IMG/VR virus record: IMGVR_UViG_3300031712_000052
Span: 30,666 to 94,665 of that record
Reading direction: 5' to 3' (one strand)
Origin: a virus
Lineage: Duplodnaviria; Heunggongvirae; Uroviricota; Caudoviricetes
Length of the DNA: 64,000 nt
Shown: positions 1,970-53,136 of the stretch, piece by piece
Numbering within the stretch: position 1 is the stretch's first letter
Layout of the letters: each line of letters starts with the position of its first letter
Made by a program: the position numbers and the translations under genes
Notes under the pieces: generated by a model
What the model was told of the DNA's origin: nothing
Database searches by the model: none
Seen by the model: the letters and a program-made list of their open reading frames with translations, nothing else

Positions 1970-2779
1970 ATGTACACTTACCACACATTCAGCAGCCCAG
2001 CTGAGTTGATCGATTTTTTGAATGGGGCTATTGTAGGACTCCCTCTTCCGTCGCTTGTATTTGGTCTACATGGCTTGACCCTTGTTGTGAATGATGGTTT
2101 GGCAGACAGGACAGTTACGTTCTCGGACCCCTCAGGTTTTGGTCTGTCTCCATTCGTTATATTGACTCAGGTTCAAGTAGTGCATGCCAACTTGGCCAAT
2201 GTGAAGTTGCGGAGTTATGGTCTATCTCCACAGAACTGGCAGCTAGTGTTAGATGCACAGGGGTATGCAGTCAAGGCCGGGACGGCAAATGTGGTTTTGG
2301 GATGGCCTGCTGGTGCTACTACGGTCAATCAGATCAGCAGTACTGACATCATACATGTAACTACATCTATAGCTAGCGGACCAAAGTACGCAGTCATAAT
2401 CAACTCAGATCAAGTGACGGCAGAAGAGATAGTAGCCGCATTCCCAGTAGGTTGGGATATGCATACTGCTGGCAGGACACCTTGGTACCGCGTAAGTCAC
2501 AAGAATATATCAATACAGATCAAATGGCCTGGCACTGGTAGTCCTTCTGGTGCTTTTGCTGTAGAAGTGACTGACAACCCCACAGATGTTACAGGCGATG
2601 CCATTCCGGGTGAGTACTTTGACGGAATAGATGATGCTCAACCTGCTGGCAGTGCAGGTGAGATCTTTGTGGATGATATAGAAACGGATGCTCTGTACAT
2701 CGCTGGTACATATACTCCAGCGCCGGGTGGTAGCGGAGTTGGGGCAGTTCCAACTATGTTATTTGTGTTCAAGGAGTAA
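1970..2779 (+). CDS. Hypothetical protein, possibly a virion component.
   Basis: 269-aa ORF with a GGAGA RBS upstream. It is beta-rich and Thr/Gly-rich. Confidence 0.5.
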   Translation: MYTYHTFSSPAELIDFLNGAIVGLPLPSLVFGLHGLTLVVNDGLADRTVTFSDPSGFGLSPFVILTQVQVVHANLANVKLRSYGLSPQNWQLVLDAQGYAVKAGTANVVLGWPAGATTVNQISSTDIIHVTTSIASGPKYAVIINSDQVTAEEIVAAFPVGWDMHTAGRTPWYRVSHKNISIQIKWPGTGSPSGAFAVEVTDNPTDVTGDAIPGEYFDGIDDAQPAGSAGEIFVDDIETDALYIAGTYTPAPGGSGVGAVPTMLFVFKE

Positions 2780-2783
2780 AGCT

Positions 2784-3383
2784 ATGGCCTATGTAACAGA
2801 GGGACATTCAGGATCAAGTGGACCCGCAGGACCATCAGGGCCATCTGGACCAGCAGGAGCACAAGGGCCATCAGGAGTACAGGGACCGTCAGGAGTGTCT
2901 GGACCTTCGGGACCGTCTGTATCAGGACCGTCAGGACCAGCAGGAGCACAAGGACCGTCAGGAGTGTCTGGACCTTCGGGACCGTCTGTATCAGGACCGT
3001 CAGGACCAGCAGGAGCACAAGGACCGTCAGGACCAGCAGGAGCATCCTCAACTGAGGCATTGGTACAGGGGCCCAATTTGGGGAATGCCGATGTAACATT
3101 TCATCCCGGTATAGACTGTGCCAGTCTATACGAGATACCTGCTGGCACTATGACGGGACCTCACAATTACAAAGCAGGTAATGATGGTACTATACCAAAC
3201 AACTTAGATGTATTTATCGTGTGTCGCGATCTGAGTACGAATGTCCCTACCATACTAAATGGTGGGGAAGGACTAGGGGTGTTATCAGCTTTTCCGGGCA
3301 CTAGACCAAGTCCTATGGGTATGTGGATACACTGGGATGGGACCAATTGGTACTGTGATAGTATTGTATGGATTAAGCCATGA
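2784..3383 (+). CDS. Collagen-like repeat protein. It has Gly-Pro-Ser/Gly-Pro-Ala triplets and a C-terminal globular domain, and is tail-fibre or decoration-like.
   Basis: AAGGAG RBS, then ATG 2784. About 30 uninterrupted G-X-Y triplets. Two tandem 69-bp DNA repeat units span 2886-3023, and partial upstream copies extend the motif toward about 2835. Confidence 0.7.
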   Translation: MAYVTEGHSGSSGPAGPSGPSGPAGAQGPSGVQGPSGVSGPSGPSVSGPSGPAGAQGPSGVSGPSGPSVSGPSGPAGAQGPSGPAGASSTEALVQGPNLGNADVTFHPGIDCASLYEIPAGTMTGPHNYKAGNDGTIPNNLDVFIVCRDLSTNVPTILNGGEGLGVLSAFPGTRPSPMGMWIHWDGTNWYCDSIVWIKP

Positions 3384-6115: not shown

Positions 6116-7360
6116 TTGACTGCCGGGCAGATCAAAGCCGCAGCATTCGTGGATGAGTTAAGCAAAGAGTCAGCCTCTTTGCTATCTCGCATTGGGCAAT
6201 GGACTGGCCGCAATCCTAAATCTACTGGCGCTGCTATTACAGGTGGTCTTGGCGCTTATGGCTTTGCTAAGCATGGCCCGTGGGGAGCAGGTGGAAGATC
6301 TAAAGGAGAGGCAAAGGCGTATCAGTCTGTTCAGAAGTTAGAGGACCAAGATCAACAGGACCCACAAGTTCAAGAAGAGTTGAGAAGGGCTTTAACTAAT
6401 CAGAGAAAAGCTGCTCGTGGAGCAGAAGGAGCTGGAGGTTGGTTAGGTGCAGCTGGTCTTGGAGGTGCTGCAATACATGCCAGTCGTAGGTTGTTTGATA
6501 GTCCTATGATCAAGGACGATATGGGTACAGTTACAACTTATGGGGATCTTAAAGCGCTGCACTCAGATCTAACGAACCAACTGGGTTATGATATACCCGT
6601 TTCTGCTTTGCCGGAAGGGCAGTTTGAGGATGCTCTGAGTATTCCGAAGGGCGGTTTCCTACCCAAGTTCCTGAGGAAGTGGGAAGCAGGAAAACACGTG
6701 CCTGCATTCGCTGCACGCAATATGAGTGATCTCAAATGGCACTTAGATCAGTTGAAAGTTGAAGACCCAGAGCTGTACGAAGAATTCATGCATAATAACC
6801 CCATCGATATCGGTGCGTCTAACTTGGCTGCGTCTAAGAAGGATGCTCTACAAGCTCTGGAAACTGGGCATGTTATGGCTCCCATGAAAGCTGGCCCGCA
6901 CTTTACTGCTCACGAGTTTGGTCATGCGATGTTTGGCAATTCCACTCTTGGTAAGCTGACCCATATGGCACGTACGCCAACCGCCTATGCGGGCGGCCTT
7001 GCTGCTTTGACTGCTGCTACTGCGACAGACCCCGATAGTACTGCCTCCAAGCTCTCTCCACTGATGGCTGCTGCTGGTGTAGCACCCATTTTGGGAGAAG
7101 AAGCTATGGCCTCGATCAACGCTATCAAAGCCATGAAACGTACTGGCTTTTCTCCTCAGCAGCTGAGTATGGGTAAAAAGCAATTGGGCAGAGCTTTTGG
7201 TACTTATGCTCTAGGACTGGGTTTGCCATCCATAGCTGCTCCGTACATCATTAGGAAGGTTAAGCAGTACAACCAAGGCCGACGGGAAAGACAGGGAATA
7301 GAAAGCCCCGGTCAGCTACAACAAAGAATCAACAGCCTACCACAAGCTACAGGAGATTGA
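6116..7360 (+). CDS. Hypothetical protein with a TTG start.
   Basis: An AAGGAG RBS lies 7 nt upstream of TTG 6116. It is 414 aa. Confidence 0.45.
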   Translation: MTAGQIKAAAFVDELSKESASLLSRIGQWTGRNPKSTGAAITGGLGAYGFAKHGPWGAGGRSKGEAKAYQSVQKLEDQDQQDPQVQEELRRALTNQRKAARGAEGAGGWLGAAGLGGAAIHASRRLFDSPMIKDDMGTVTTYGDLKALHSDLTNQLGYDIPVSALPEGQFEDALSIPKGGFLPKFLRKWEAGKHVPAFAARNMSDLKWHLDQLKVEDPELYEEFMHNNPIDIGASNLAASKKDALQALETGHVMAPMKAGPHFTAHEFGHAMFGNSTLGKLTHMARTPTAYAGGLAALTAATATDPDSTASKLSPLMAAAGVAPILGEEAMASINAIKAMKRTGFSPQQLSMGKKQLGRAFGTYALGLGLPSIAAPYIIRKVKQYNQGRRERQGIESPGQLQQRINSLPQATGD

Positions 7361-7364
7361 TCAA

Positions 7365-7937
7365 ATGGACTCATTCTTGAGTGACCTATACAGAGAGCGC
7401 ATGGAAAAGAGAGCCGGTGTGGAACTGATGGAGCTTTTTGACTCTATCCCCATAGAGCAGTTGGAACGGTTCCTCGGTCTTACCAAGGTGGCTGTGGAAG
7501 GGCCTACAACACCTGAGTTACCTGATGGCGGGCCGGTGAAGAAGTACTTGGATGTTGCGGAAAAAGCACCAGCCAAGAAGACTACACCTCCAGAACTTCC
7601 TACCGCAGCCTCACCTACAGCAAAGACTGCAGGAGTTGTCAAAGACTTGTTGTCTGCAGCGGCCAATAGGGTACAGAAGAGTGCTACTCCCGCTATTGAT
7701 AAGATGGTTGATCAACAGATAAACAGGAAGATCAAAGACCTCGGTCCCAAAGCCATGCTGGCTGGGGGTGGTCTGTTGGGTGGGGGCATAGCAACGGGTG
7801 GGGTGGGTGGCTATGTAGCAGGGAAGCACTCTGGGGAAAAGAGAGCAGAGCTTTTGATTACAGCTCTTAGAGCAGTCAAGGATGCTCCTGAGTATGTGAA
7901 GCATGCAGCGGCCAAGTATGTGGGGGAGAGACTCTAA
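7365..7937 (+). CDS. Hypothetical protein with a Gly-rich C-terminal segment.
   Basis: 190-aa ORF. Confidence 0.45.
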   Translation: MDSFLSDLYRERMEKRAGVELMELFDSIPIEQLERFLGLTKVAVEGPTTPELPDGGPVKKYLDVAEKAPAKKTTPPELPTAASPTAKTAGVVKDLLSAAANRVQKSATPAIDKMVDQQINRKIKDLGPKAMLAGGGLLGGGIATGGVGGYVAGKHSGEKRAELLITALRAVKDAPEYVKHAAAKYVGERL

Positions 7938-19803: not shown

Positions 19804-21207
19804 TCATCCTCGTATTGGTGGTAATGTTAGCAGAGATGTGGCCACCTTGTCATATGCTGCTGGACCGAAAGATTTGATCCAAACTTTCTGGCCGTCAGAG
19901 AAGCGCTCGATAGTCTGCGCCACATTCTCTGGCGTGGCATGGCCTAGGTCTGTATAGTGTGGACTGTAGCCGTTGAGTACTCTTGTTCTGCTGTACATAT
20001 CTTCGTTCATGAGTGTACGTGCTACCACATCTGCATGCTTGGAATAGCCAGCATCCAAGTACTCGTCTGAGTAGGTCCACACACTCCCCCTATCTACTTG
20101 ATCTAAGTGCGTGATGGCCAGGCCATCTATGGGTAGGTCTTCGTAGCACCTATCTAGTGCATACTTGTGTAGGCTCATGTCAAAGAATCCAGTACGTAGA
20201 GCACCCTGCCATCTATTTTCCGGGTTATGCTTATCTGCAAATCTGTTTGTCTGGACACTGCTGAATGTGGGAAAGGGGCCAGGTCCGTGTCTTGTGGGGT
20301 AGGCTCGTACTACCCCTATCATGTGTAGCTTGAGCTTCATGAACGGGGCTACATTCATGATGTTCGTACCGGTGGTCTTGCTCCACGTGTTGTACGGAGC
20401 AAAGCCCCAGTCCTCATCTATCAGCACACCTTGAGCTCCTTCAAAGATGACAGCATCTGTTTCGTTGATCAATGGATCAATCATGCTCGTAGACCAGATG
20501 TTGTTGGGATTGATGGCGGAGCTCATCAGGTCAGCTATCACATCTACATTCTTGTCCATGGCCAGTACTGTGAGCCACTTGTTGTGGGTTATACGATCTT
20601 CAAAAGGCATGGGCTCAAGGATAGGTATTCTAGAGACCTCGATTCTTATCACATCCCGCAGAATTTGTAGCTTCATCCTCAGAAGGGGCGAAGATCCCAT
20701 GTGCCCCAGCAGATCTTTGGCCCGTATAGTCGTCATCTCAGAAACAACATCTCCACCCCATTCAGCCTGGGAAAGTCGTATGGTCTCTCCAAAACCTACT
20801 CCGCAGCTTCCATTTCTACTACTTCCCCTAGATAGCTCACGGATGCAATTCAAAGCTTGGTGATATGGAGTAGTGACCAAGCAGTTCTCATGTATGATCA
20901 GATTCTCCATTGGGTTTTCTACACCCAAGCTTTCCAGGTGCTTTGCTTCCGCCTGAAGGGCTATTGGGTGTATGGCTACATCCTGAGACAGGACTGTTTT
21001 AACTCCCGGCACAAGAGAGCCGCTACCGAACTGAGAGAATGTGTGGTGTCTACCATCAGGGGTCACCACATTGTGACCAGCTTGAGCTCCGCCATTGAAG
21101 CGGACCACAAGTTTGGCACCAGTATGTCGGGTAAGGAAATCAACGATGGTACCCTTACCAGAGTCGCCGAATCCTAGATCTACTACGCCGTATGCAATAC
21201 GACTCAT
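19804..21207 (-). CDS. purA-like: Adenylosuccinate synthetase family protein. This is a PurA homologue and a candidate PurZ-type enzyme.
   Basis: GFGDSGKGTIVD matches the PurA P-loop GDEGKGK, and FNGGAQAGHNVV matches GGxNAGHT. ATG 21207 overlaps the upstream stop as ATGA. Confidence 0.75.
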   Translation of the reverse strand: MSRIAYGVVDLGFGDSGKGTIVDFLTRHTGAKLVVRFNGGAQAGHNVVTPDGRHHTFSQFGSGSLVPGVKTVLSQDVAIHPIALQAEAKHLESLGVENPMENLIIHENCLVTTPYHQALNCIRELSRGSSRNGSCGVGFGETIRLSQAEWGGDVVSEMTTIRAKDLLGHMGSSPLLRMKLQILRDVIRIEVSRIPILEPMPFEDRITHNKWLTVLAMDKNVDVIADLMSSAINPNNIWSTSMIDPLINETDAVIFEGAQGVLIDEDWGFAPYNTWSKTTGTNIMNVAPFMKLKLHMIGVVRAYPTRHGPGPFPTFSSVQTNRFADKHNPENRWQGALRTGFFDMSLHKYALDRCYEDLPIDGLAITHLDQVDRGSVWTYSDEYLDAGYSKHADVVARTLMNEDMYSRTRVLNGYSPHYTDLGHATPENVAQTIERFSDGQKVWIKSFGPAAYDKVATSLLTLPPIRG

Positions 21208-21731
21208 TGATCTTTCCTTCCTGTCATAGCAAATCCCCATTTCTTCCGTTCTGCTTGTGTTTGTTGCGGGTAGAAGGAGAAGCAGTCTCTGAATGCTTCC
21301 TTCATTGCTTTCGCAGCTCTGTTATCTGGGCAATACGAGCAGATTGCAAATAGTGGTTCAGTGCAGTTGACTCCGTAGTTCAAACCCATCAGATACGCAG
21401 ATGATTTTATCAATAACTCATGGTGAATAGAGTTGGGGGTTTGGAATCGATCTTCCTTTGGTGTTGGGTCAATACCTACATAGAACCTGTGGTTTCGGAA
21501 GTAGTAGGCTTGAAACGCATAAGCGCACCCAATGTCTACTATGACCCTGTTGCGCGGAATGATGTTGGATAGGTGTCTGTAGATATCTATGAAACCTACA
21601 AAGGTGGGGTCTATGTCTCCATGATCTTCGATTTGGGCCCACACCCTTTTGAACTCCTTCGGGTATGCTTTGCATATCTTCTTCAGAAGAGTAGCAGTCA
21701 TTACATCGTGTCTGTGTTGCTTTTTTGACAT
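21204..21731 (-). CDS. Hypothetical protein with a possible Rossmann-like VIVDIGCAYA motif.
   Basis: 175-aa ORF. The motif match is weak. Confidence 0.4.
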   Translation of the reverse strand: MSKKQHRHDVMTATLLKKICKAYPKEFKRVWAQIEDHGDIDPTFVGFIDIYRHLSNIIPRNRVIVDIGCAYAFQAYYFRNHRFYVGIDPTPKEDRFQTPNSIHHELLIKSSAYLMGLNYGVNCTEPLFAICSYCPDNRAAKAMKEAFRDCFSFYPQQTQAERKKWGFAMTGRKDQ

Positions 21732-37777: not shown

Positions 37778-37908
37778 TGAATACTCCTTGGTTGGCGGAG
37801 AAATAGGGGATTGGTACCTACTCTAATCCTTATGCCATTAACTGGCTTCGTATTGCAAGGCTAGAGAAGAACATGGTTGGTGTTCTTCTTTAGCGATTGA
37901 TCTCTCAG

Positions 37909-38910
37909 CTGTACCTACTTCTTTGTGTCTTTAGCTATTGTTACACAGTGAATCTAGATATAACCCGAGAGCGTTTTTCACTGTACCTACTTCTTTGCTT
38001 CTCTACTCATTGTTACGTATCTTGAACCCCAGCGTGGACACTCGGCCTGAAACTGTACCTACTTCTTTGTTTCTCTACTCATTGTTGATTCTTGCGGTGG
38101 CTTGCTGTACCTACTTCTTTGCTTACGTGTACGCGAACCCAGTTAGCTATCTGTACCTACTTCTTTGCTTCTTCTAACCCGTCGATTTTGCTGTACCTAC
38201 TTCTTTGTTTCTACATTAGTTGTTACGGCGTCGTGTCCAACCCGAAAGGTGACTGTACCTACTTCTTTGCTTCTCTACGCATTGTTACTCGGGCACCGAA
38301 CTCTTCTCATCCTGTACCTACTTCTTTGCTTCTATACCCATTGTTACGACCCATGCAGCTTTCTTCGGGGTGAACCCGTGGACTGTACCTACTTCCTTGT
38401 TTCTCTACTCATTGTTACAGGGTGACCAACCTGTGTTTCCTTTGCCGCCGTCTTCTGTACCTACTTCTTTGTTTCTTGGTTATCCCGTTTGTGGCACTTG
38501 TATGTCTTCTGCCTGTACCTACTTTTTTGCTTCTTTAGCCATTGTTACTTGTCCGACGGTCACACGGCAGAAAGCAGGAAATCATCTGTACCTACTTCTT
38601 TGTTTCTCGACTCATTGTTACATCCCCAAAGGCCGTTCCCAAGCGCACCAACACTCTGTACCTACTTCCTTGTTTCTCGACTCATTGTTACGTGGCCGTA
38701 ACAATGACAGCGGCACCGAGCCGGGCTGCTGTACCTACTTCTTTGTTTCTCTACTCATTGTTACCTGGGCGTGCCGCTGGTGGCCCTGTTCAGAAAGCCA
38801 CCTGTACCTACTTCTTTGTTTCTCTACTCATTGTTACCTAGTTGCCTTTGATTCTTTGGGTAGACTGCAGTCGACTGTACCTACTTCTTTGTTTCTCTAC
38901 TCATTGTTAC
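37909..38910 (-). CRISPR. CRISPR array. It has a 36-nt repeat, 13 full copies, 3 truncated copies and 15 unique spacers of roughly 16-37 nt.
   Basis: Repeats start at 37909 (degenerate), 37981, 38053, 38105 (20-nt fragment), 38151 (20-nt fragment), 38191, 38253, 38312, 38383, 38455 (22-nt fragment), 38513, 38586, 38656, 38729, 38802 and 38875. The three copies at the high-coordinate end are identical. The strand is inferred from the polymorphism gradient and the cas operon direction. Confidence 0.9.
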
Positions 38911-38959
38911 AGCAGCGTCTAAAAGGTAAGCACTTTCGGTAAGTTAATAGGGCAATTAC

Positions 38960-39011
38960 GAGCACCTCAGATTTGCTGGTAATGAAGCCAGTTATCAAAT
39001 CTGAGGTGCTC
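38960..39011. terminator. Long perfect hairpin, GAGCACCTCAGATTTG...CAAATCTGAGGTGCTC, between the 194-aa gene stop and the array.
   Basis: 16-bp inverted repeat with a 20-nt loop. It could be a terminator or a processing element. Confidence 0.45.
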
Positions 39012-39017
39012 GCTATG

Positions 39018-39602
39018 TTACTGCTTGCTCAACTTCTCTTTGAACTTCTCCACCTTCTCCTCGGCCACCTCGGCTCTCTTCTCTGCCGCGAGCCTCTTTC
39101 TCTTCTCTTCCTTGAGCTGTTTCTCAAGGTCCTTGATGATTTCGTGTAGCCTCGCGGTCTCTGACTGCTTCCCACCCACTCCAACCTTAGGAGCCACTAC
39201 CTTTGACACCATCCTGGTGACTGCCTCTGTGGATGGTTTCCTACCCCTTTCCTCATACCACTGCTCAAGCTGGGTCATCATGTCCTTCTCTACACGCGAG
39301 TCGGGCGGTAGACGAATACATGTGATAGCCGACTCCACCCCATACTTCAGCACCCACTCTCTCCCAAAGCGTTCGAGGGCTGTGCCTAGCCGCTTGAACT
39401 TTGCTGGGGACCAAGAGAACTCAGTCTCCAAGCAGTCTCCAAAGGTGCCGTACTTGACTTTCCAGAGCTCATTGTCCCTGAGATTCTCACAGACGTAGTC
39501 GTAGAACTTCAGGATGAACTCATCTGGCTTGAGGAGGAAAGACCTTGCAGTGGTGATGACTGCTATGAACTTCTCTACCAATCTGTCTCCTACATTACTC
39601 AT
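39018..39602 (-). CDS. Unknown 194-aa protein, translationally coupled to the Cas12-like gene. It has a C-terminal Lys/Glu coiled-coil tail.
   Basis: Its ATG overlaps the stop of the upstream gene by 4 nt. It lies between the effector gene and the array. Confidence 0.55.
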   Translation of the reverse strand: MSNVGDRLVEKFIAVITTARSFLLKPDEFILKFYDYVCENLRDNELWKVKYGTFGDCLETEFSWSPAKFKRLGTALERFGREWVLKYGVESAITCIRLPPDSRVEKDMMTQLEQWYEERGRKPSTEAVTRMVSKVVAPKVGVGGKQSETARLHEIIKDLEKQLKEEKRKRLAAEKRAEVAEEKVEKFKEKLSKQ

Positions 39603-41275
39603 CGTGTGTCCCTTTCAGCTTTAGTCTTTGGGGGTTTCTTCCCTTTCATCTTTCCTTTGGATGCCTCGTTCAATGTCTGTTGCAACTCTTCACGTACCAG
39701 CCAATACCTGCTGTTCTGGGGCAGGTCTACCTTTTTGGCCAGGCTCAAGTCTATGATCGCATTTTCAATTGCGATGCGATCTATGTGGCCACTGTAGGTG
39801 CACTTGACACAGTTGAAGCGCCAATTCTTGAAGTCCAAGGCAGCCTCATTGAGGCTGCCACAGCTAGGGCATCGGCGGGTGTGGTAGAAGGTCTTGAACT
39901 TCTCAACCTCCACACCATGTTTGGCTGCGTCCTGGGTGACGTAGTCAACAATCTTGAACCAAGGTGCTTGGTGCACCGCCACCTTGATCCACGGGTCAAG
40001 GTCTGACTCCTCAGCTCTCTTTCGGATGTTCCTGAGCTCAGGAAGCCAGATCTTACTGCGTGTGTTTATCGCCTTGCCCACAATGCGAGCCGCTACCTTC
40101 CTGCAGAAACTGTCCACCACCTCGGCCTCATCATTGTCTAGCTTGAACCTGTTGACTTGATACATGTGCCCTTTACCAGGCACTCGAAGCTGGCTGCATC
40201 TCTGAATCTCTTTCCGTCTGGCACGAATACGCCCTCTCCTCGCAGCGAAACCATCACCAAACACCCAGAACCCCTGGCTCCTATTGAGAGCCTCCTCCAC
40301 TGTGAGAGCCACTGTGAATACCTTCAACCCACAGTGAACTATGATGTTGTTCTTCACTGCTAGCACTGGTGGCTTGGGTCGGCGGTACTGAAGGAGGACA
40401 AACCACTTATTGTCCTCACGATACAGACCCATAGTGCCTGGAGCCCAGACATCCTGAGTGGGTACAGCAGTGGCTAGGTCTTTCCTGAGGTATTCTCCCG
40501 CTGCAACTCTACTCAGAACTCCACGCACGTAGTTGTCTTGCTTGGCTTTCCTCAACCTCAAGGCCAAGTTCCACCATGTCCCATCCAAGTTCACCGATAT
40601 GTTCATGCCATCTCTGCGTGAGAACCTCCAGCCGGTAGGACGAAGCCACACAGGCCAGCTGTCCTTGATGTTCATTACCGACTCTTCACCTATGGCGACT
40701 TTCTTGAGACTCTTGGTGAATGCCTCCGCAAGTCGGCGTGACATTGCACCAGTGACGGAGGAGCTGACTTGTGGCACACGTTCCTCATCCATCCCTCCCA
40801 CCAGTTCTCTGCCCACGACCCTATAGGCGAGTGTGCCCAGCACCTCTCGCTCATCCGCTCTTGGCTCCAGCCTCACTCTCTTCTTCTTTTCAGGGTCTTG
40901 CTGGGTTGTGTCCAGGGCTGGAAGCGGCTTGTCCAGGTTGAGCCACATGCTTCGTATGGCGGCATTGCCAGCTATCCTCACCCTCTTCTGGATGAGGGTA
41001 AGTACACGAAAAAACGCTCTAGCGATTGTCCTTGGTTCTTCGAGAACCGGGGGTGCGTTTTCGATCTTCTTGCCGTTCTTGTCTTTGGGTGATACCCAAA
41101 CCTTGGGTAGCCAGGCATGCTTGCCACCTGCTACCGGAATAAAGTGTTCTCTCTTTTCCGGTACGTCACTGAGGAAAGAGATGGGATCTTTGCACCTGTC
41201 CAATGCTGTAGCTACCTCGAGTTTGAGGATGCCCAGCATCTCATGCTTTCTCTTCTCACGAGTTGCTTTGTTCAT
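39599..41275 (-). CDS. cas12-like: Compact 558-aa type V Cas12/TnpB-like RuvC nuclease with a zinc ribbon.
   Basis: RuvC-II IWLPELRNI. Zinc ribbon CPSCG...CVKC. RuvC-III GHIDRIAIENAI matches the TnpB/Cas12 HADxNAAxNI motif. The candidate RuvC-I is ISVNLDGTWWNLAL. AAGGAA RBS. Confidence 0.75.
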   Translation of the reverse strand: MNKATREKRKHEMLGILKLEVATALDRCKDPISFLSDVPEKREHFIPVAGGKHAWLPKVWVSPKDKNGKKIENAPPVLEEPRTIARAFFRVLTLIQKRVRIAGNAAIRSMWLNLDKPLPALDTTQQDPEKKKRVRLEPRADEREVLGTLAYRVVGRELVGGMDEERVPQVSSSVTGAMSRRLAEAFTKSLKKVAIGEESVMNIKDSWPVWLRPTGWRFSRRDGMNISVNLDGTWWNLALRLRKAKQDNYVRGVLSRVAAGEYLRKDLATAVPTQDVWAPGTMGLYREDNKWFVLLQYRRPKPPVLAVKNNIIVHCGLKVFTVALTVEEALNRSQGFWVFGDGFAARRGRIRARRKEIQRCSQLRVPGKGHMYQVNRFKLDNDEAEVVDSFCRKVAARIVGKAINTRSKIWLPELRNIRKRAEESDLDPWIKVAVHQAPWFKIVDYVTQDAAKHGVEVEKFKTFYHTRRCPSCGSLNEAALDFKNWRFNCVKCTYSGHIDRIAIENAIIDLSLAKKVDLPQNSRYWLVREELQQTLNEASKGKMKGKKPPKTKAERDTR

Positions 41276-41298
41276 GGCAGTTCCTTCGGTTAGTAGTT

Positions 41299-41560
41299 TG
41301 TTGATCTAAATGAATGGCTGCATGTAAGATGAGGTTACCAAAGAAGTAGGTAGTCCCTGAACTAGTCAGGAACGCATGGTAGCTAGCTTGCGCTAGTACC
41401 TCAGCAGAGCGGCTCGCGGGAGTGAAATCCGGCGACTTCTCCGCTATTGGGCCGTGCCATCGACCCCTCACGCTTTAGATCATAGCTGAACTAGTCAACC
41501 AGACCCTAGGCATGGGTGGTGCCTCACCCCTCACATGCAGCCATTCATTCAGATCAACAG
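41299..41560 (-). ncRNA. Candidate structured ncRNA, tracrRNA-like, or a MITE-like element. It is bounded by about 38-bp imperfect inverted repeats and contains a 14-nt anti-repeat at 41339-41352.
   Basis: The segment at 41299-41336 is the inverse complement of 41522-41560. CAAAGAAGTAGGTA at 41339-41352 is the inverse complement of repeat nucleotides 4-17. Internal direct repeats are CTGAACTAGTCA x2 and CCCCTCAC x2. Confidence 0.35.
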
Positions 41561-41620
41561 ATAGGGAAAAGTAATCTTCTCTATCTATATTCCTTATACC
41601 GCTAGCACAACACAATTTGC

Positions 41621-41648
41621 GGGCAAAAGAAAGGCCAATGCCTTTCTC
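41621..41648 (-). terminator. Minus-strand rho-independent terminator, AGAAAGGC-ATTG-GCCTTTCT followed by TTTT.
   Basis: 8-bp stem followed by a T-run on the minus strand. It is flanked by a second hairpin at 41651-41681. Confidence 0.5.
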
Positions 41649-41705
41649 CTGAATCACTGGCTTCGCGACTGTCAGTGATTCAGCCTAGCCACATTATGCA
41701 TGTTT

Positions 41706-42179
41706 CTACAACTGTACCTTTCTACTCTTACGTGGCCGGGGAGAGTAAGAGGTATGCGATGCTCTCCTACTGATGTCCATGAGCTGTCTGAGCCTTTCAG
41801 GTGTGATGTCCCTATCATTGATCAGGCCAGCTCTCCTCAAGCCTTTAGCTACCTTGGCCACAGCATTGACCTCGAGTTGTCTAACACGTTCGCGGGTGAC
41901 ACCAAGAGTGATACCTACTTCATTCAAGGTATGGTCTCTGGTGGTCAGCTTCAGTACGCATGGCTGCCCCCGCTGCTTGGTTAGGGCTGTATCCCTGGCA
42001 TCATGTGCTATGTGATACCTGCAATACTTGAGTGGGCAGATACCACTCTTGCTGAGACATTGACCATCGGTGACTTCGAAGATGTTCTCAGGGTCTATGT
42101 GGTCTGGTACTGAGTCCAGGCGTTCATTCTCTTCCACTCTATTGGCTGCAGCCAATAGACCTACTTCATCATCAATCAT
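41706..42179 (-). CDS. Sigma-70 region-4-like HTH protein, a small sigma factor or transcription regulator.
   Basis: TLNEVGITLGVTRERVRQLEVNAVAKV matches the sigma r4.2 consensus TLEEVG..GVTRERIRQIE.KAL.KL. Confidence 0.6.
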   Translation of the reverse strand: MIDDEVGLLAAANRVEENERLDSVPDHIDPENIFEVTDGQCLSKSGICPLKYCRYHIAHDARDTALTKQRGQPCVLKLTTRDHTLNEVGITLGVTRERVRQLEVNAVAKVAKGLRRAGLINDRDITPERLRQLMDISRRASHTSYSPRPRKSRKVQL

Positions 42180-48223: not shown

Positions 48224-48300
48224 ATCCTCAGTAGCCTGAGACCTTCTCACTAGCCTCTCCTCAGTAGCCTCTCCTCAGTAGCCTCTCCTCAGTAGCCTGG
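48224..48300. repeat. Tandem 14-bp repeat TAGCCTCTCCTCAG, three full copies plus partial copies, in the strand-switch intergenic region.
   Basis: Full copies at 48251-48292. Partial copies at 48226-48250 and 48293-48300. Confidence 0.7.
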
Positions 48301-48557: not shown

Positions 48558-48947
48558 GACCCGCCAGGCTCATTCTAGTGGCCGGCAAGGGTGTTGTAGA
48601 GCAGTGCTTGCTCACTCAGTTAGCTATGTCTTTATGAATTGCTAGCCCCCTAGTGCCCCTGGGTCACGCATATGGTAGGGGTAGGGGTACCCATCCAAAC
48701 AGATCAAGGTACCCTGGTTCACGCATATGGCATAGTGAGTAGGGTCTGATCAATTTGGTCCTGGTACTCTGTGTTGTGTGTATGGTGGGGGGTACACTGG
48801 GGACTTTGATCTAATTGGCTCTAGAACCATAGGGAATGCCTATGGGGTGGGGTAGGGGTATGGGGCAAGGGCTAGGTAATTTGCGGGTATAAGTATAGTG
48901 AGGCTGATATCACGTTTTTAGATCAACAACTTACCAAGAGAGGCACC

Positions 48948-52268: not shown

Positions 52269-52432
52269 TTGGATCAGCCAAAGATAGAAGAGAAGTGCAT
52301 TCGTCTAGACAATCTACAATACATCATGCCTGGCTGGGGTTGTTGTCAGTGCCGAGTGTACAATGACTACAGCCGTCCAGTCTGTAAGAACTGTGGTCAC
52401 ACGCCTTGTTACCCACTACCGGAGGGAACCAC

Positions 52433-52600
52433 ATGACTATGTACCAGTGGTTGATGAAGGCATACAACGAGCATGCTGGCATTTCATTAACCCCAATCGA
52501 GACCAAGGAGCTAGCGCACGTGATGAGGAAGCTAGTCCAGTACAAGCGCACCCACAATGCACACGTAACATTCAGCAAGAAGCGCAAAAGGATCAAGTGA
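52433..52600 (+). CDS. Small basic protein.
   Basis: A GGAGGG RBS lies upstream of ATG 52433. Its stop overlaps the next gene's start as ATGA. Confidence 0.4.
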   Translation: MTMYQWLMKAYNEHAGISLTPIETKELAHVMRKLVQYKRTHNAHVTFSKKRKRIK

Positions 52601-53136
52601 TGGGTATAGACCATAAGTACAATGACAGGGACGCTCCCATTCTAGGGTTCAGAGGTCCTACCAAGTGGCTTTCCAACTTCTGGCCAGCTGACATCAAATT
52701 TGAGGGTCTCATATACCCTGCCAATGAGAACGCATTCCAGGCAGCCAAATTCCCGCAGGAGGAAAGGCTCAAGTTCACTGTATGCAATCCCAGGGAAGCC
52801 AAGGAGATGGGCAAGACTACGCCAATGAGCGAGCTTCGACTGAAGGAGTGGATGGGTGGTCTTCGGGACATGGTTATGCTCCAGGTTAACATGGAGAAGT
52901 ACCGAGCTCATGAGATACTGAGAAACACACTCATTGCTACTGGGAATGCCTATCTAGAAGAGACCAACAACTGGGGGGACAGGTACTGGGGAGTATGCGG
53001 TGGCGAGGGAGAGAACATGTTGGGTAGAATCCTCATGGAGCTCAGAACGCACCTGAAGCTAGACTGGAAAACGCACTTGTATGCATACGATGAGCGTATG
53101 ATGGACAACATTAAACAATGCAGGAGGGTTGCCTAA
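52600..53136 (+). CDS. NADAR domain protein of the YbiA/DUF1768 family.
   Basis: Motifs GFRGPTKWLSNFWPA, YPANENAFQAAKF, WGDRYWGVCGG and GENMLGRILMELR. The start is set at ATG 52600, not at the longer track ORF. Confidence 0.65.
   Translation: MGIDHKYNDRDAPILGFRGPTKWLSNFWPADIKFEGLIYPANENAFQAAKFPQEERLKFTVCNPREAKEMGKTTPMSELRLKEWMGGLRDMVMLQVNMEKYRAHEILRNTLIATGNAYLEETNNWGDRYWGVCGGEGENMLGRILMELRTHLKLDWKTHLYAYDERMMDNIKQCRRVA

Follow-up and report, generated by a model that had tools for sequence, protein, structure and literature searches.

Compact type V effectors carried by phages include CasPhi (Cas12j), a tracrRNA-independent protein of 700-800 aa with an active D-E-D nuclease site. Cas12r of Thermus phages is likewise tracrRNA-independent with an active D-E-D site; it is 564 aa long, has D238 as a catalytic residue and is associated with 29-nt repeats (bioRxiv 10.64898/2026.04.20.719267). 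Other type V effectors, Cas12m and Cas12c, are natural DNA binders that do not cleave, are borne on mobile elements and are linked to conflict between such elements (PMC11013384, PMC12669027). Nuclease-dead Cas12f (dCas12f) is known from the dCas12f-sigmaE systems, whose bacteroidetal, chromosomal, sigmaE-linked genes encode C-terminally truncated effectors that lack an array and a tracrRNA and use a single omega-like guide; in addition, a "distinct cluster of putative dCas12f near CRISPR arrays" has been described, with guides said to target promoter regions (PMC13472631).

The locus studied here lies in a stretch of phage DNA of 64,000 nucleotides (the window), which has tail sheath and PurZ-like matches and in which most genes are small and unannotated. 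The original prediction placed here a miniature type V CRISPR locus that is carried by a phage and has no adaptation genes nearby, and our analysis supports this: the array, the 558-aa and 194-aa ORFs, their 4-nt overlap and the gene order were all found where they had been placed. The accompanying claim that cas1, cas2 and cas4 are absent from the window holds for the regions covered, since none was found among the genes called in the 10 kb or so flanking the system on each side or among ten further mid-size ORFs (Pfam). Directly upstream of the system is a gene for a 157-aa Sigma70_r4 protein (41706-42179), also present in the sister phage (L013). The features of the system are:

37864..37889, minus strand: hairpin AGAAGAACA...TGTTCTTCT past the last repeat unit, read from the sequence
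37909..38910, minus strand: CRISPR array with 16 copies of a 36-nt repeat
Repeat starts (plus-strand numbering): 37909, 37981, 38053, 38105, 38151, 38191, 38253, 38312, 38383, 38455, 38513, 38586, 38656, 38729, 38802, 38875
38765..38801, minus strand: spacer 2, GTGGCTTTCTGAACAGGGCCACCAGCGGCACGCCCAG, the sole spacer with an identified target
38911..39017, minus strand: putative leader from the partner gene to the first repeat, read from the sequence
39018..39602, minus strand (39602->39018): 194-aa accessory (partner) protein, overlapping the effector ORF by 4 nt and followed by the array
39599..41275, minus strand (41275->39599): 558-aa Cas12f-like effector ORF (Pfam, PADLOC, AF2, Foldseek)
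41276..41564, minus strand: conserved non-coding leader, candidate tracrRNA and 5' leader of the effector transcript
41334..41352, minus strand: anti-repeat TACCTACTTCTTTG (41352->41339) and conserved GGTAAC motif (41339->41334)
41381..41468, minus strand: structured RNA scaffold of 88 nt (RNAalifold, pair counts, covariance model)
41625..41683, minus strand: two hairpins closing the upstream gene (41683-41649; 41647-41625, then three T), read from the sequence

Four parts are conserved in this system: a tracrRNA-like RNA, an effector with a Cas12f fold, a helical partner of ~190 aa and an array on the same strand.

The AF2 model of the effector (pLDDT 91.7, pTM 0.85) has Cas12f ternary complexes as its best Foldseek matches (E 4e-20 to 1e-18), with AsCas12f on top (E 4e-20) together with SpCas12f1 and OsCas12f; dCas12f ranks 14th, Cas12m 27-30 and CasPhi 49th. 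Cas12f/Cas12u3 is also the best profile match, at about 1e-25 (PADLOC Cas12f profile, 1.7e-25), Pfam PF07282 matches at 2.8e-8, and identity to solved Cas12f is 14-18%. The model thus indicates that the effector is Cas12f-like rather than CasPhi-like, and the likeness to CasPhi that had been claimed is also at odds with a predicted tracrRNA whose anti-repeat covaries with the repeat (see below). The effector family is rare (12 clusters at E<1e-30 among 1.84 billion representatives). Compared with the sister phage, the effector has a dN/dS of 0.09 and the partner one of 0.14, a sign of functional constraint. The partner is kept in eight loci of the effector family and is all-helical, with a C-terminal helix of ~45 residues; no recognisable domain was found in it.

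Three effector motifs pointed out earlier, IWLPELRNI (E413), the zinc ribbon CPSCG...CVKC (C469/C472/C489/C492) and GHIDRIAIENAI (D499), are present and align, in this order, with the RuvC-II, zinc-finger and RuvC-III segments of solved Cas12f, and the ribbon is intact (CxxC...CxxC). The proposed RuvC-I residue D231, and with it the 182-residue spacing to RuvC-II, had to be abandoned, because the AF2 model places D231 in a beta hairpin of WED type (strands 225-229 and 234-240). The RuvC-I position is instead H314, at the end of strand 309-315 ("IIVHCGLK"): it is paired with the RuvC-I Asp in both phmmer alignments with solved Cas12f chains that span the position, and canonical members have Asp in this column of a 66-sequence family alignment. 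This position is His in 11/11 family members covering the site. Glu at the RuvC-II position is confined to the phage group of the window, and T, A, S or D is found in other members (T/A/S in six of 11 relatives; seven are non-Glu when the Asp of the fragment P0012 is counted). Position 499 is D or E in every member, and D425, N505 and D509 are invariant. In a broader related clade the RuvC-II Glu and RuvC-III Asp are retained and RuvC-I is H, N or R. The triad of the window's effector is H314/E413/D499, with the canonical residue at two positions out of three (E413 and D499). Judged from these alignments, the canonical RuvC D-E-D triad is absent from the effector, and the residues suggest that cleavage may have been lost. 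As RuvC-I is His throughout and RuvC-II is variable, PAM-dependent cleavage of dsDNA is not to be presumed.

Several observations predict that the system has a tracrRNA, overlooked until now, encoded upstream of the effector. The leader at 41276..41564 is ~96% identical to that of the sister phage, synonymous sites of the adjacent genes having a dS of 0.63-0.70, and neither a convincing ORF nor an Rfam family was found in it. Its 14-nt anti-repeat complements repeat positions 20-33. A same-strand anti-repeat of 12-16 nt is also located 5' of the effector in L004, L006, L008, L009 and L012, and across the six loci (these five, and the window together with L013) the anti-repeat covaries with its own repeat. 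The scaffold consists of a hairpin P1, a long-range stem P2 around AAGYC, a hairpin P3 and GAxxCG, followed by AAGG. RNAalifold detected compensatory changes in 13/17 pairs (10/13 in P1 and P2); P1 and P2 are 91-96% paired, values reached in none of 500 shuffles, and slid controls gave 32-53%. The covariance model of the scaffold has a single match per locus, each time on the effector strand. No self-folding was found when the repeat alone was analyzed, i.e. it is unstructured. We infer that the transcription unit of the system extends upstream no further than the hairpins at 41625..41683.

On the effector strand the repeat reads GTAACAATGAGTAGAGAAACAAAGAAGTAGGTACAG. Full-length copies make up 13 of the 16 repeats, and the other three (38105, 38151 and 38455) are shortened to the spacer-proximal 22 nt, so that the 3' 22 nt are kept in 16/16 copies. 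Consensus repeats are on the gene side of the array and degenerate ones at the opposite end. All spacers are unique, with lengths of 16-37 nt and a GC content of 54-57% versus 49.5% for the phage. Similar arrays are present downstream of the effector in L004, L006, L008, L009, L012 and L013, following the partner gene where this gene intervenes; in L010 and L011 no array was found within 6 kb. Deletions in several arrays left the 3' 14-22 nt of the repeat and at least the initial 16 nt of the spacers intact, which is consistent with a crRNA made up of a 5' handle and a short guide. In the sister phage, the effector is 90% identical and the repeat is identical, and all spacers are different; its array terminates in a hairpin identical to that at 37864..37889, which is possibly the end of the array transcript. 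From its position, the region 38911..39017, with a 15-bp-stem hairpin at 38961-39010, may be a leader, promoter or attenuator.

Spacer 2 matches positions 356-392 of metagenome contig Ga0182027_10021982 (L016) in 37/37 nucleotides. The contig has a GC content of 60%, and the protospacer is not flanked by repeats. It falls in a short ORF that has an XRE-type gene on one side and a HEPN gene on the other, 103 nt upstream of the latter (TPR + HEPN_LA2681, 6e-31), and a PD-T4-7-like gene (8e-23) is 5.6 kb away; no sigma-70-like promoter was detected at the protospacer. Going by these gene matches, the only target site found is in a putative defence locus of a genome of ~60% GC, next to a presumed bacterial anti-phage gene. 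The use against competing mobile elements that had been suggested is possible.

Our favoured explanation, to which we give about an even chance, is that the system, carried by a phage and dependent on a tracrRNA, uses a DNA-binding derivative of Cas12f to silence genes of the host or of rival elements. About 14 nt at the 3' end of each repeat in the array transcript would pair with the anti-repeat, and the resulting guides would have a repeat-derived 5' handle of ~20 nt and at least 16-20 nt of spacer. The effector, lacking the canonical D-E-D triad (RuvC-I His, RuvC-II variable, RuvC-III D/E), would in complex with these RNAs most likely bind matching DNA uncut and block its transcription, as a natural CRISPRi, and the partner protein may serve as a co-factor. 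In this way the phage could shut down genes belonging to its host or to rival elements that reside there, among them anti-phage defence genes. The system thus probably switches its targets off instead of cutting them. Weighing against this reading are the conserved RuvC-I His, the constantly acidic residue 499 and the invariant D425, which may point to a rearranged active site, as well as the retention of E413 and D499 in this phage, the position of the single protospacer in an ORF, the two loci in which no array was found nearby and the lack of a recognisable domain in the partner.

It is possible, and in our view rather unlikely, that nuclease activity persists in the effector through a non-canonical or rearranged RuvC site (e.g. 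His314 + Asp425 + Asp/Glu499) and that, with tracrRNA and crRNA, the phage uses it to cut DNA of rival mobile elements or the host. It would then carry out interference of the classical kind, like CasPhi, Cas12r and the phage system of ICP1. H314 is conserved and not random, residue 499 is always D or E, D425, N505 and D509 do not vary, and the wider clade, with its RuvC-II Glu, RuvC-III Asp and H/N/R at RuvC-I, suggests selection on the pocket; moreover, spacers that turn over and a 37-nt match without mismatches are what one typically sees in interference systems. However, the beta-1 Asp, which in RNase H-fold nucleases binds both metals, is missing from every family member, RuvC-II is T/A/S in 6/11 relatives without a demonstrated replacement, and the tolerated spacers of 16-18 nt suit binding better than the licensing of cleavage. 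PMC10691335 bears on both sides: it documents conserved catalytic-site rearrangements in TnpB/Cas12 with activity probably kept, a precedent for such a nuclease, but counts V-U24, whose RuvC-I is non-canonical, as one of the branches in which the catalytic site is altered.

RNA-guided activation or RNAP recruitment, with the sigma-region-4 protein or the partner brought in by the effector to turn on genes at sites set by the guide, appears improbable. The Sigma70_r4 gene is directly upstream in both phages, dCas12f-sigmaE systems exist (PMC13472631) as an analogy and dCas12f is among the fold matches. Nevertheless, a sigma-type Pfam match is absent beside the effector in eight more distant family loci, terminator-like hairpins separate the sigma-like gene from the system, the partner is dissimilar to the sigma-like protein (hhalign probability 0.1), and the zinc ribbon, C-terminus, array and predicted tracrRNA are unlike dCas12f-sigmaE. 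We also find it hard to credit that a dead effector and its tracrRNA act as a decoy or anti-CRISPR, sequestering host type V-F crRNAs or occupying targets to shield the phage: the effector is nuclease-degenerate with its own predicted tracrRNA, and a comparable idea was proposed for a phage Cas9 with inactivated RuvC and a phage tracrRNA (PMC11656645), but here the phage maintains a long array of its own with spacer turnover among close relatives, at least one spacer exactly matches a non-phage locus, and the anti-repeat fits the phage's own repeat. The scenario named in the original prediction as its refutation, an IS200/IS605-type TnpB with an omega-RNA and incidental repeats, is extremely improbable and was rejected. 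Weak matches of the C-terminal half to guided_TnpB (NCBIfam; 44.9 bits, cut-off 100) and to the phrog_506 "transposase" (6.6e-11) are outweighed by the lack of TnpA, the single-copy effector gene, the conserved RNA upstream and not at the gene's 3' end, arrays with unique spacers downstream in six independent family loci, and CRISPR-associated Cas12f as best profile and fold match.

With silencing without cleavage as the favoured explanation, the system can be set beside those described. Like CasPhi and Cas12r, it combines a compact phage type V effector with an array and without adaptation genes, and at 558 aa the effector is close to Cas12r in size; unlike them, it lacks D-E-D and has a predicted tracrRNA, the repeats are 36 nt versus 29 nt for Cas12r, and CasPhi is a poor structural match. 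The proposed crRNA-guided binding, blocking transcription of an uncut target, resembles that of Cas12m (V-M) and Cas12c (V-C), but these belong to different clades, and Cas12m (fold rank 27-30) is without tracrRNA, is plasmid-enriched and has another RuvC inactivation pattern. Nuclease-dead Cas12f (PMC13472631) is similar in being Cas12f-derived and RuvC-compromised, with predicted RNA-guided DNA binding that controls transcription. Unlike dCas12f-sigmaE, the window system is phage-borne, keeps its C-terminus and zinc ribbon, has an array and a predicted tracrRNA, and belongs to a family without a conserved sigma factor; the CRISPR-associated dCas12f cluster, as described, is comparable. The system may be the uncharacterised V-U24 group, which in the accessible part of PMC10691335 shares with it a non-canonical RuvC-I (here His) and a small helical partner that is conserved, although the partner in the window system is without a demonstrated HTH; for V-U24, that part of the text describes neither a tracrRNA nor a phage context, and neither a target nor a mechanism. 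The best structural and profile match is to Cas12f (V-F1; AsCas12f, SpCas12f1, Un1Cas12f1). The window family differs from it in its RuvC-I His, non-conserved RuvC-II, 14-18% identity, phage location, predicted tracrRNA in the effector's upstream leader and helical partner gene, and has in common with it a miniature effector whose zinc ribbon sits between RuvC-II and RuvC-III, a repeat-pairing tracrRNA (here predicted) and the frequent absence of adaptation genes.

The locus and the gene next to it lie on the minus strand, as follows.

41706-42179, minus strand: 157-aa protein with sigma-70 region 4 only (2.4e-8), directly upstream of the system
41275->39599, minus strand: effector ORF, 558 aa (ORF call)
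39602->39018, minus strand: partner ORF, 194 aa, overlapping the effector ORF by 4 nt
37909-38910: array with 16 copies of the repeat motif (repeat finder)

The array and both ORFs, with their coordinates, strand and 4-nt overlap, were as described in the original prediction, which had regarded the locus as a type V system with an effector of the Cas12j/Cas12f size class, smaller than CasPhi. The assignment to type V was borne out. The effector matched PF07282 at 2.8e-8 (34.3 bits, gathering cut-off 26.3), and its AF2 model, for which the alignment input was 66 sequences, has a RuvC topology with a pLDDT of 91.7 and a pTM of 0.85. Foldseek gave a probability of 1.0 to many Cas12/TnpB structures, so that the RuvC/TnpB fold on which the prediction depended stands. 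In the Foldseek comparison with the PDB the top 13 structures were all Cas12f, with AsCas12f, SpCas12f1, OsCas12f and CnCas12f1 leading (E 4e-20 to 2e-14), and dCas12f (14th), TnpB (21-23), Cas12m (27-30) and CasPhi-3 (49th) ranked below them. The PADLOC Cas12f/Cas12u3 profiles matched the effector at about 1e-25, and its 558 aa fall inside the Cas12f size range of 400-700 aa. The NCBIfam cut-offs were not reached for Cas12f2 (NF049972, 23.3 bits against 450), guided_TnpB (NF040570, 44.9 against 100) or NF038281 (17.5 against 425). Judged by its modelled structure, the effector is Cas12f-like. Word-indexed homology searches returned the effector itself only and were blind to its relatives, which made an exhaustive HMMER search necessary; among 1.84 billion representatives this gave just 12 clusters at E<1e-30, followed by a sharp fall to 1e-16. 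No effector relative was found in a search of IMG/VR.

Comparison by phmmer with PDB sequences (CnCas12f1, OsCas12f and AsCas12f) identified E413 as the RuvC-II residue and D499 as the RuvC-III residue, and aligned H314 with the RuvC-I Asp. In the AF2 model H314 ends the first RuvC strand (309-315), and D231, previously taken as the RuvC-I residue, is located in an upstream beta hairpin. That assignment has to be given up, and with it the D-E-D triad, as the window effector carries H314/E413/D499. All 11 family members that span RuvC-I have His there ('VVHCGLR'). At RuvC-II, Glu occurs in the window protein only and T, A, S or D in the other members, and at RuvC-III the family has D or E. The zinc ribbon, D425, N505 and D509 are invariant. 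More distant relatives mostly have HRG, NRG or RRG at RuvC-I, with the Glu of RuvC-II and the Asp of RuvC-III retained; a minority of them show the canonical D-E-D. These alignments indicate that the canonical catalytic RuvC triad is absent across the family.

Neither strand of the repeat folds by itself (MFE 0 kcal/mol). A complementarity scan revealed a perfect 14-nt anti-repeat, TACCTACTTCTTTG, at 41352->41339 on the effector strand, which pairs with repeat positions 20-33 and is situated in a 430-nt ORF-poor gap 5' of the effector. Five loci of relatives (L004, L006, L008, L009 and L012) have a 12-16-nt anti-repeat on the same strand upstream of the effector, usually followed by GGTAAC, and each of these fits its own, different repeat, which amounts to covariation over six loci. 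In addition, an 88-nt RNA module can be aligned upstream of all 11 effectors (alignment A7). Its predicted fold comprises a hairpin, P1, and a long-range stem, P2, around AAGYC, a hairpin and GAxxCG, with compensatory changes in 13 of the 17 predicted pairs. For P1 and P2, 91% and 96% of the cells are paired, and changes on both sides occur in 10 of 13 pairs; none of 500 shuffles reached the observed values, and with slid partners pairing was 32-53%. The G-U pairs of the module favour the effector strand, and the covariance model gave one match per locus, always on the effector strand (41468->41381 in the window), and none elsewhere in 166 kb. The non-coding region 41564->41276 is about 96% identical between the window and its sister phage (L013), although the adjoining genes have dS values of 0.63-0.70. 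An Rfam scan of the locus, leader included, detected no family. A possible second anti-repeat to the 5' half of the repeat was rejected, as it gave matches of 5-8 nt only at inconsistent positions. The covarying anti-repeat and the structured, conserved RNA upstream of the effector lead us to predict a tracrRNA, at odds with the earlier comparison with CasPhi, which lacks one.

The module precedes the anti-repeat in the window, L013 and L004-L008, and follows it in L009, L012 and probably L010 and L011. In L009 (1003-1174) and L012 (5700-5868) the anti-repeat and GGTAAC are found about 100 nt upstream of the module, not downstream, an apparent permutation of the two putative tracrRNA halves. 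For two effectors the annotated start looks wrong: P0008 is extended at its N-terminus, and the ORF of P0007 runs upstream of its called ATG. In L019, a distant 'HRG' relative (P0014, 514 aa) is encoded next to a 1176-aa phage-integrase-domain gene. The tracrRNA covariance model has a weak match (14 bits) right at the P0014 gene start, and two 18-nt direct repeats, AAKCGAGCATGAAGCGGA, lie 34 nt apart at 6647-6698, about 100 nt downstream of the gene; these are possibly a mini guide array.

Thirteen of the 16 repeats in the window are full 36-mers, and the other three (38105, 38151 and 38455) retain the first 22 nt only (plus strand); the spacers are all unique and measure 16-37 nt. Three other assemblies carry this array unchanged. 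The sister phage, whose effector is 90% identical, has the same repeat with 13 spacers, none of them in common with the window, which indicates that spacers turn over. Arrays of the same style are located 3' of the effector on the same strand in the window, L004, L006, L008, L009, L012 and L013. The effectors of L010 (6001-7779) and L011 (6001-7842), which reside on contigs of 83-100 kb, have no repeat array in the 6 kb to either side, despite an RNA module upstream and a partner gene; these loci may have their array elsewhere on the contig or use another guide source. Within arrays, family-wide, there is almost no variation in the last 14-22 nt of the repeat; its 5' part decays, and several units lack this part along with the final stretch of the spacer before it. 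Such a pattern would be expected if function depends on no more than the handle and the first 16-20 nt of the spacer. The claim that the window holds no cas1, cas2 or cas4 was upheld for about 10 kb on either side and for ten other mid-size ORFs, where Cas1-, Cas2- and Cas4-type Pfam families gave no match.

Homologues of the 194-aa partner are encoded between the effector and the array position in the window, L004, L009, L010 and L011, and directly after the array in L006, L008 and L012. The dN/dS values, 0.14 for the partner and 0.09 for the effector, indicate that purifying selection acts on the partner. A relationship of the partner to the neighbouring sigma-region-4 protein was rejected, since the two show no similarity.

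The tail-sheath-like 1138-aa protein, the PurZ-like enzyme and three tRNAs identify the window as phage DNA. The effector protein is also present on contigs of up to 133.5 kb, and the contigs of relatives (83-129 kb) carry DNA polymerase A, SNF2 helicase and similar genes. Taken together, the gene content and RNA elements point to a type V system that derives from Cas12f, putatively depends on a tracrRNA and resides in large phages or phage-like elements. Three genes of these phages may bear on nucleases and defence.

19804-21240, minus strand: 478-aa PurZ-like protein (phrog_1211 '2-aminooxy adenylosuccinate synthetase', E 1.9e-67)
52363-53136, plus strand: NADAR-domain protein (Pfam 6e-20)
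7280-7753 of the sister-phage locus L013: Macro-domain protein

The phage may replace adenine by 2-aminoadenine (the Z-DNA base) which, if present, would itself protect the DNA from many nucleases. The NADAR and Macro proteins are candidate ADP-ribosylation-reversal (anti-DarT-type) counter-defence genes, and the phage group thereby seems rich in anti-defence functions. Elsewhere in the window, the intergenic region at about 48600-48900 (also positions 1-300 of the variant contig L001) coincides with a switch of gene orientation and GC skew and contains three direct repeats of roughly 75 nt (…ACCAGGGTA..TTGATC..GGTACCCCTACCCCTACCAT…); a 14-nt tandem repeat (3.8 copies) is present at 48246-48298. 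The region may be an origin or a regulatory region. Collagen-like 9-nt (GGACCN) tandem repeats at 2819-3046 (plus strand), within ORF 2688-3383, probably encode a Gly-X-Y fibre or tail-fibre segment.

The database search proposed for the spacers yielded one exact match. When metagenomes were scanned with the first 22 nt of spacer 2, a single contig was hit, L016 (8.5 kb, 60% GC), where the match extends to 37/37 and is not flanked by repeats. On one side of the target (356-392) is an XRE-type HTH ORF and on the other a 573-aa TPR + HEPN_LA2681 gene, with the target 103 nt upstream of the ATG of the latter, and a PD-T4-7-like defence gene is located 5.6 kb away. The guide is complementary to the coding strand, and the 5' flank on the non-target strand, the sole natural one known, is GCTTGGTCC. 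Region 83-469 of L016 contains the XRE-type HTH ORF and then a 46-aa ORF that repeats the HTH end and has an AT-hook-like tail (RPGPGRPKKR); the target falls inside this 46-aa ORF, and spacer 2 also has a partial match (19/21) at 192-212 in the first HTH gene. Mean spacer GC content is 54-57% in the two sister phages; that of the phage is 49.5%. All family-array spacers, compared with the window, other parts of these phages and the family loci, gave no match beyond chance, the best being 12-15 nt, the chance level for 80 queries. Likewise, twelve concatenated spacers had no match in 50,697 phage records, nor did 22-24-mers of spacers 1-5 in IMG/VR. The 14-nt seed match of spacer 12 at L001 225-238, imperfect in the window itself, is probably due to chance. 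Partial matches of spacer 3 (22-23 nt) to an Acidobacteriota MAG and a Myxococcota MAG were not used as evidence, because a 22-mer of 77% GC may match by chance in 596 Gb.

The family-wide loss of the canonical triad argues, by analogy with Cas12m, Cas12c and dCas12f (PMC12669027, PMC13472631), for an effector that binds but does not cleave, and a role in counter-defence through silencing is suggested by the exact spacer match next to a HEPN defence gene. We give this combination roughly even credence. The effector-guide complex would bind a target matching the spacer and shut it off without cutting, a natural CRISPRi. The main rival is that the effector is still an active nuclease with a rearranged catalytic pocket: the His at RuvC-I is a conserved residue, position 499 always carries an acidic one, D425 is invariant, and such catalytic rearrangements are documented (PMC10691335). 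We consider an active pocket of this kind unlikely.

The position of the sigma-region-4 gene directly upstream of the system would fit a sigma-linked activation model. This gene is kept in the sister phage (L013, L015) and is not found next to distant family members, with no sigma-type Pfam match near the effector in eight other family loci, and two terminator-like hairpins (41683-41625) part it from the tracrRNA region. Both its limitation to the phage group and its separation by the hairpins weaken the activation model, which we regard as highly improbable. 

Returning to silencing by binding, a wider form of it is put forward tentatively: large phages would carry a programmable anti-defence silencer, in which a nuclease-dead Cas12f derivative, guided by a tracrRNA, works with a helical co-factor of its own. 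Its spacers would be taken up against defence islands of the host or mobile elements that carry defence genes, and it would shut these off by binding, not cutting, as a natural CRISPRi of the phage against bacterial immunity. If the silencing reading holds, this would be, to our knowledge, the first case of a phage type V system that acts on a host defence locus through RNA-guided binding instead of cleavage. Phages would thereby have a counter-defence that is both programmable and heritable, and there would be a further independent case of a Cas12 turned into a transcription regulator. With its defined predicted tracrRNA scaffold and apparently short guides (16-20 nt), a putative DNA binder of 558 aa is a candidate for a compact CRISPRi or base-editor chassis. 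The conserved partner and the RuvC-I His offer handles for biochemistry. The case also illustrates how a tracrRNA and a dead active site can escape notice when a phage mini-Cas12 gene is taken to be 'CasPhi-like' by default.

With respect to known systems, the closest solved relatives are Cas12f proteins, which the effector resembles in its best fold and profile matches, its size, and a predicted tracrRNA whose anti-repeat pairs with the repeat; it differs from them in not reaching the curated NCBIfam cut-offs and in lacking the D-E-D triad. The analogy with CasPhi does not hold. CasPhi/Cas12j proteins are 700-800 aa long, have no tracrRNA and process a hairpin repeat themselves, whereas the window effector has 558 aa, its repeat is unstructured, a tracrRNA is predicted and CasPhi-3 ranks low in the fold comparison. 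An IS200/IS605 TnpB with an omega-RNA (OMEGA), the other alternative raised originally, was rejected: no TnpA was found by Pfam within about 10 kb on either side of the effector, the conserved RNA is upstream and not 3', and arrays are downstream. Cas12r of Thermus phages differs in having an active D238, 29-nt repeats and no tracrRNA. A literature search found no paper on a tracrRNA, phage context, partner or target for this effector family. According to PMC10691335, the provisional V-U24 has a non-canonical RuvC-I and is associated with an HTH protein. The first of these traits is seen in the window effector's family, in which every covering member has His for Asp at RuvC-I, and V-U24 may be the same family. 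By analogy, the closest functional counterparts would be dCas12f and Cas12m. The dCas12f-sigmaE systems have an operonic ECF sigma factor with a C-terminal extension, a C-terminus cut so that zinc finger and RuvC-III are missing, and a single omega-like guide with neither array nor tracrRNA; the window system, in contrast, has a region-4 protein only, and this in its own phage group, and combines a zinc ribbon and D499 with a 16-repeat array and a predicted tracrRNA.
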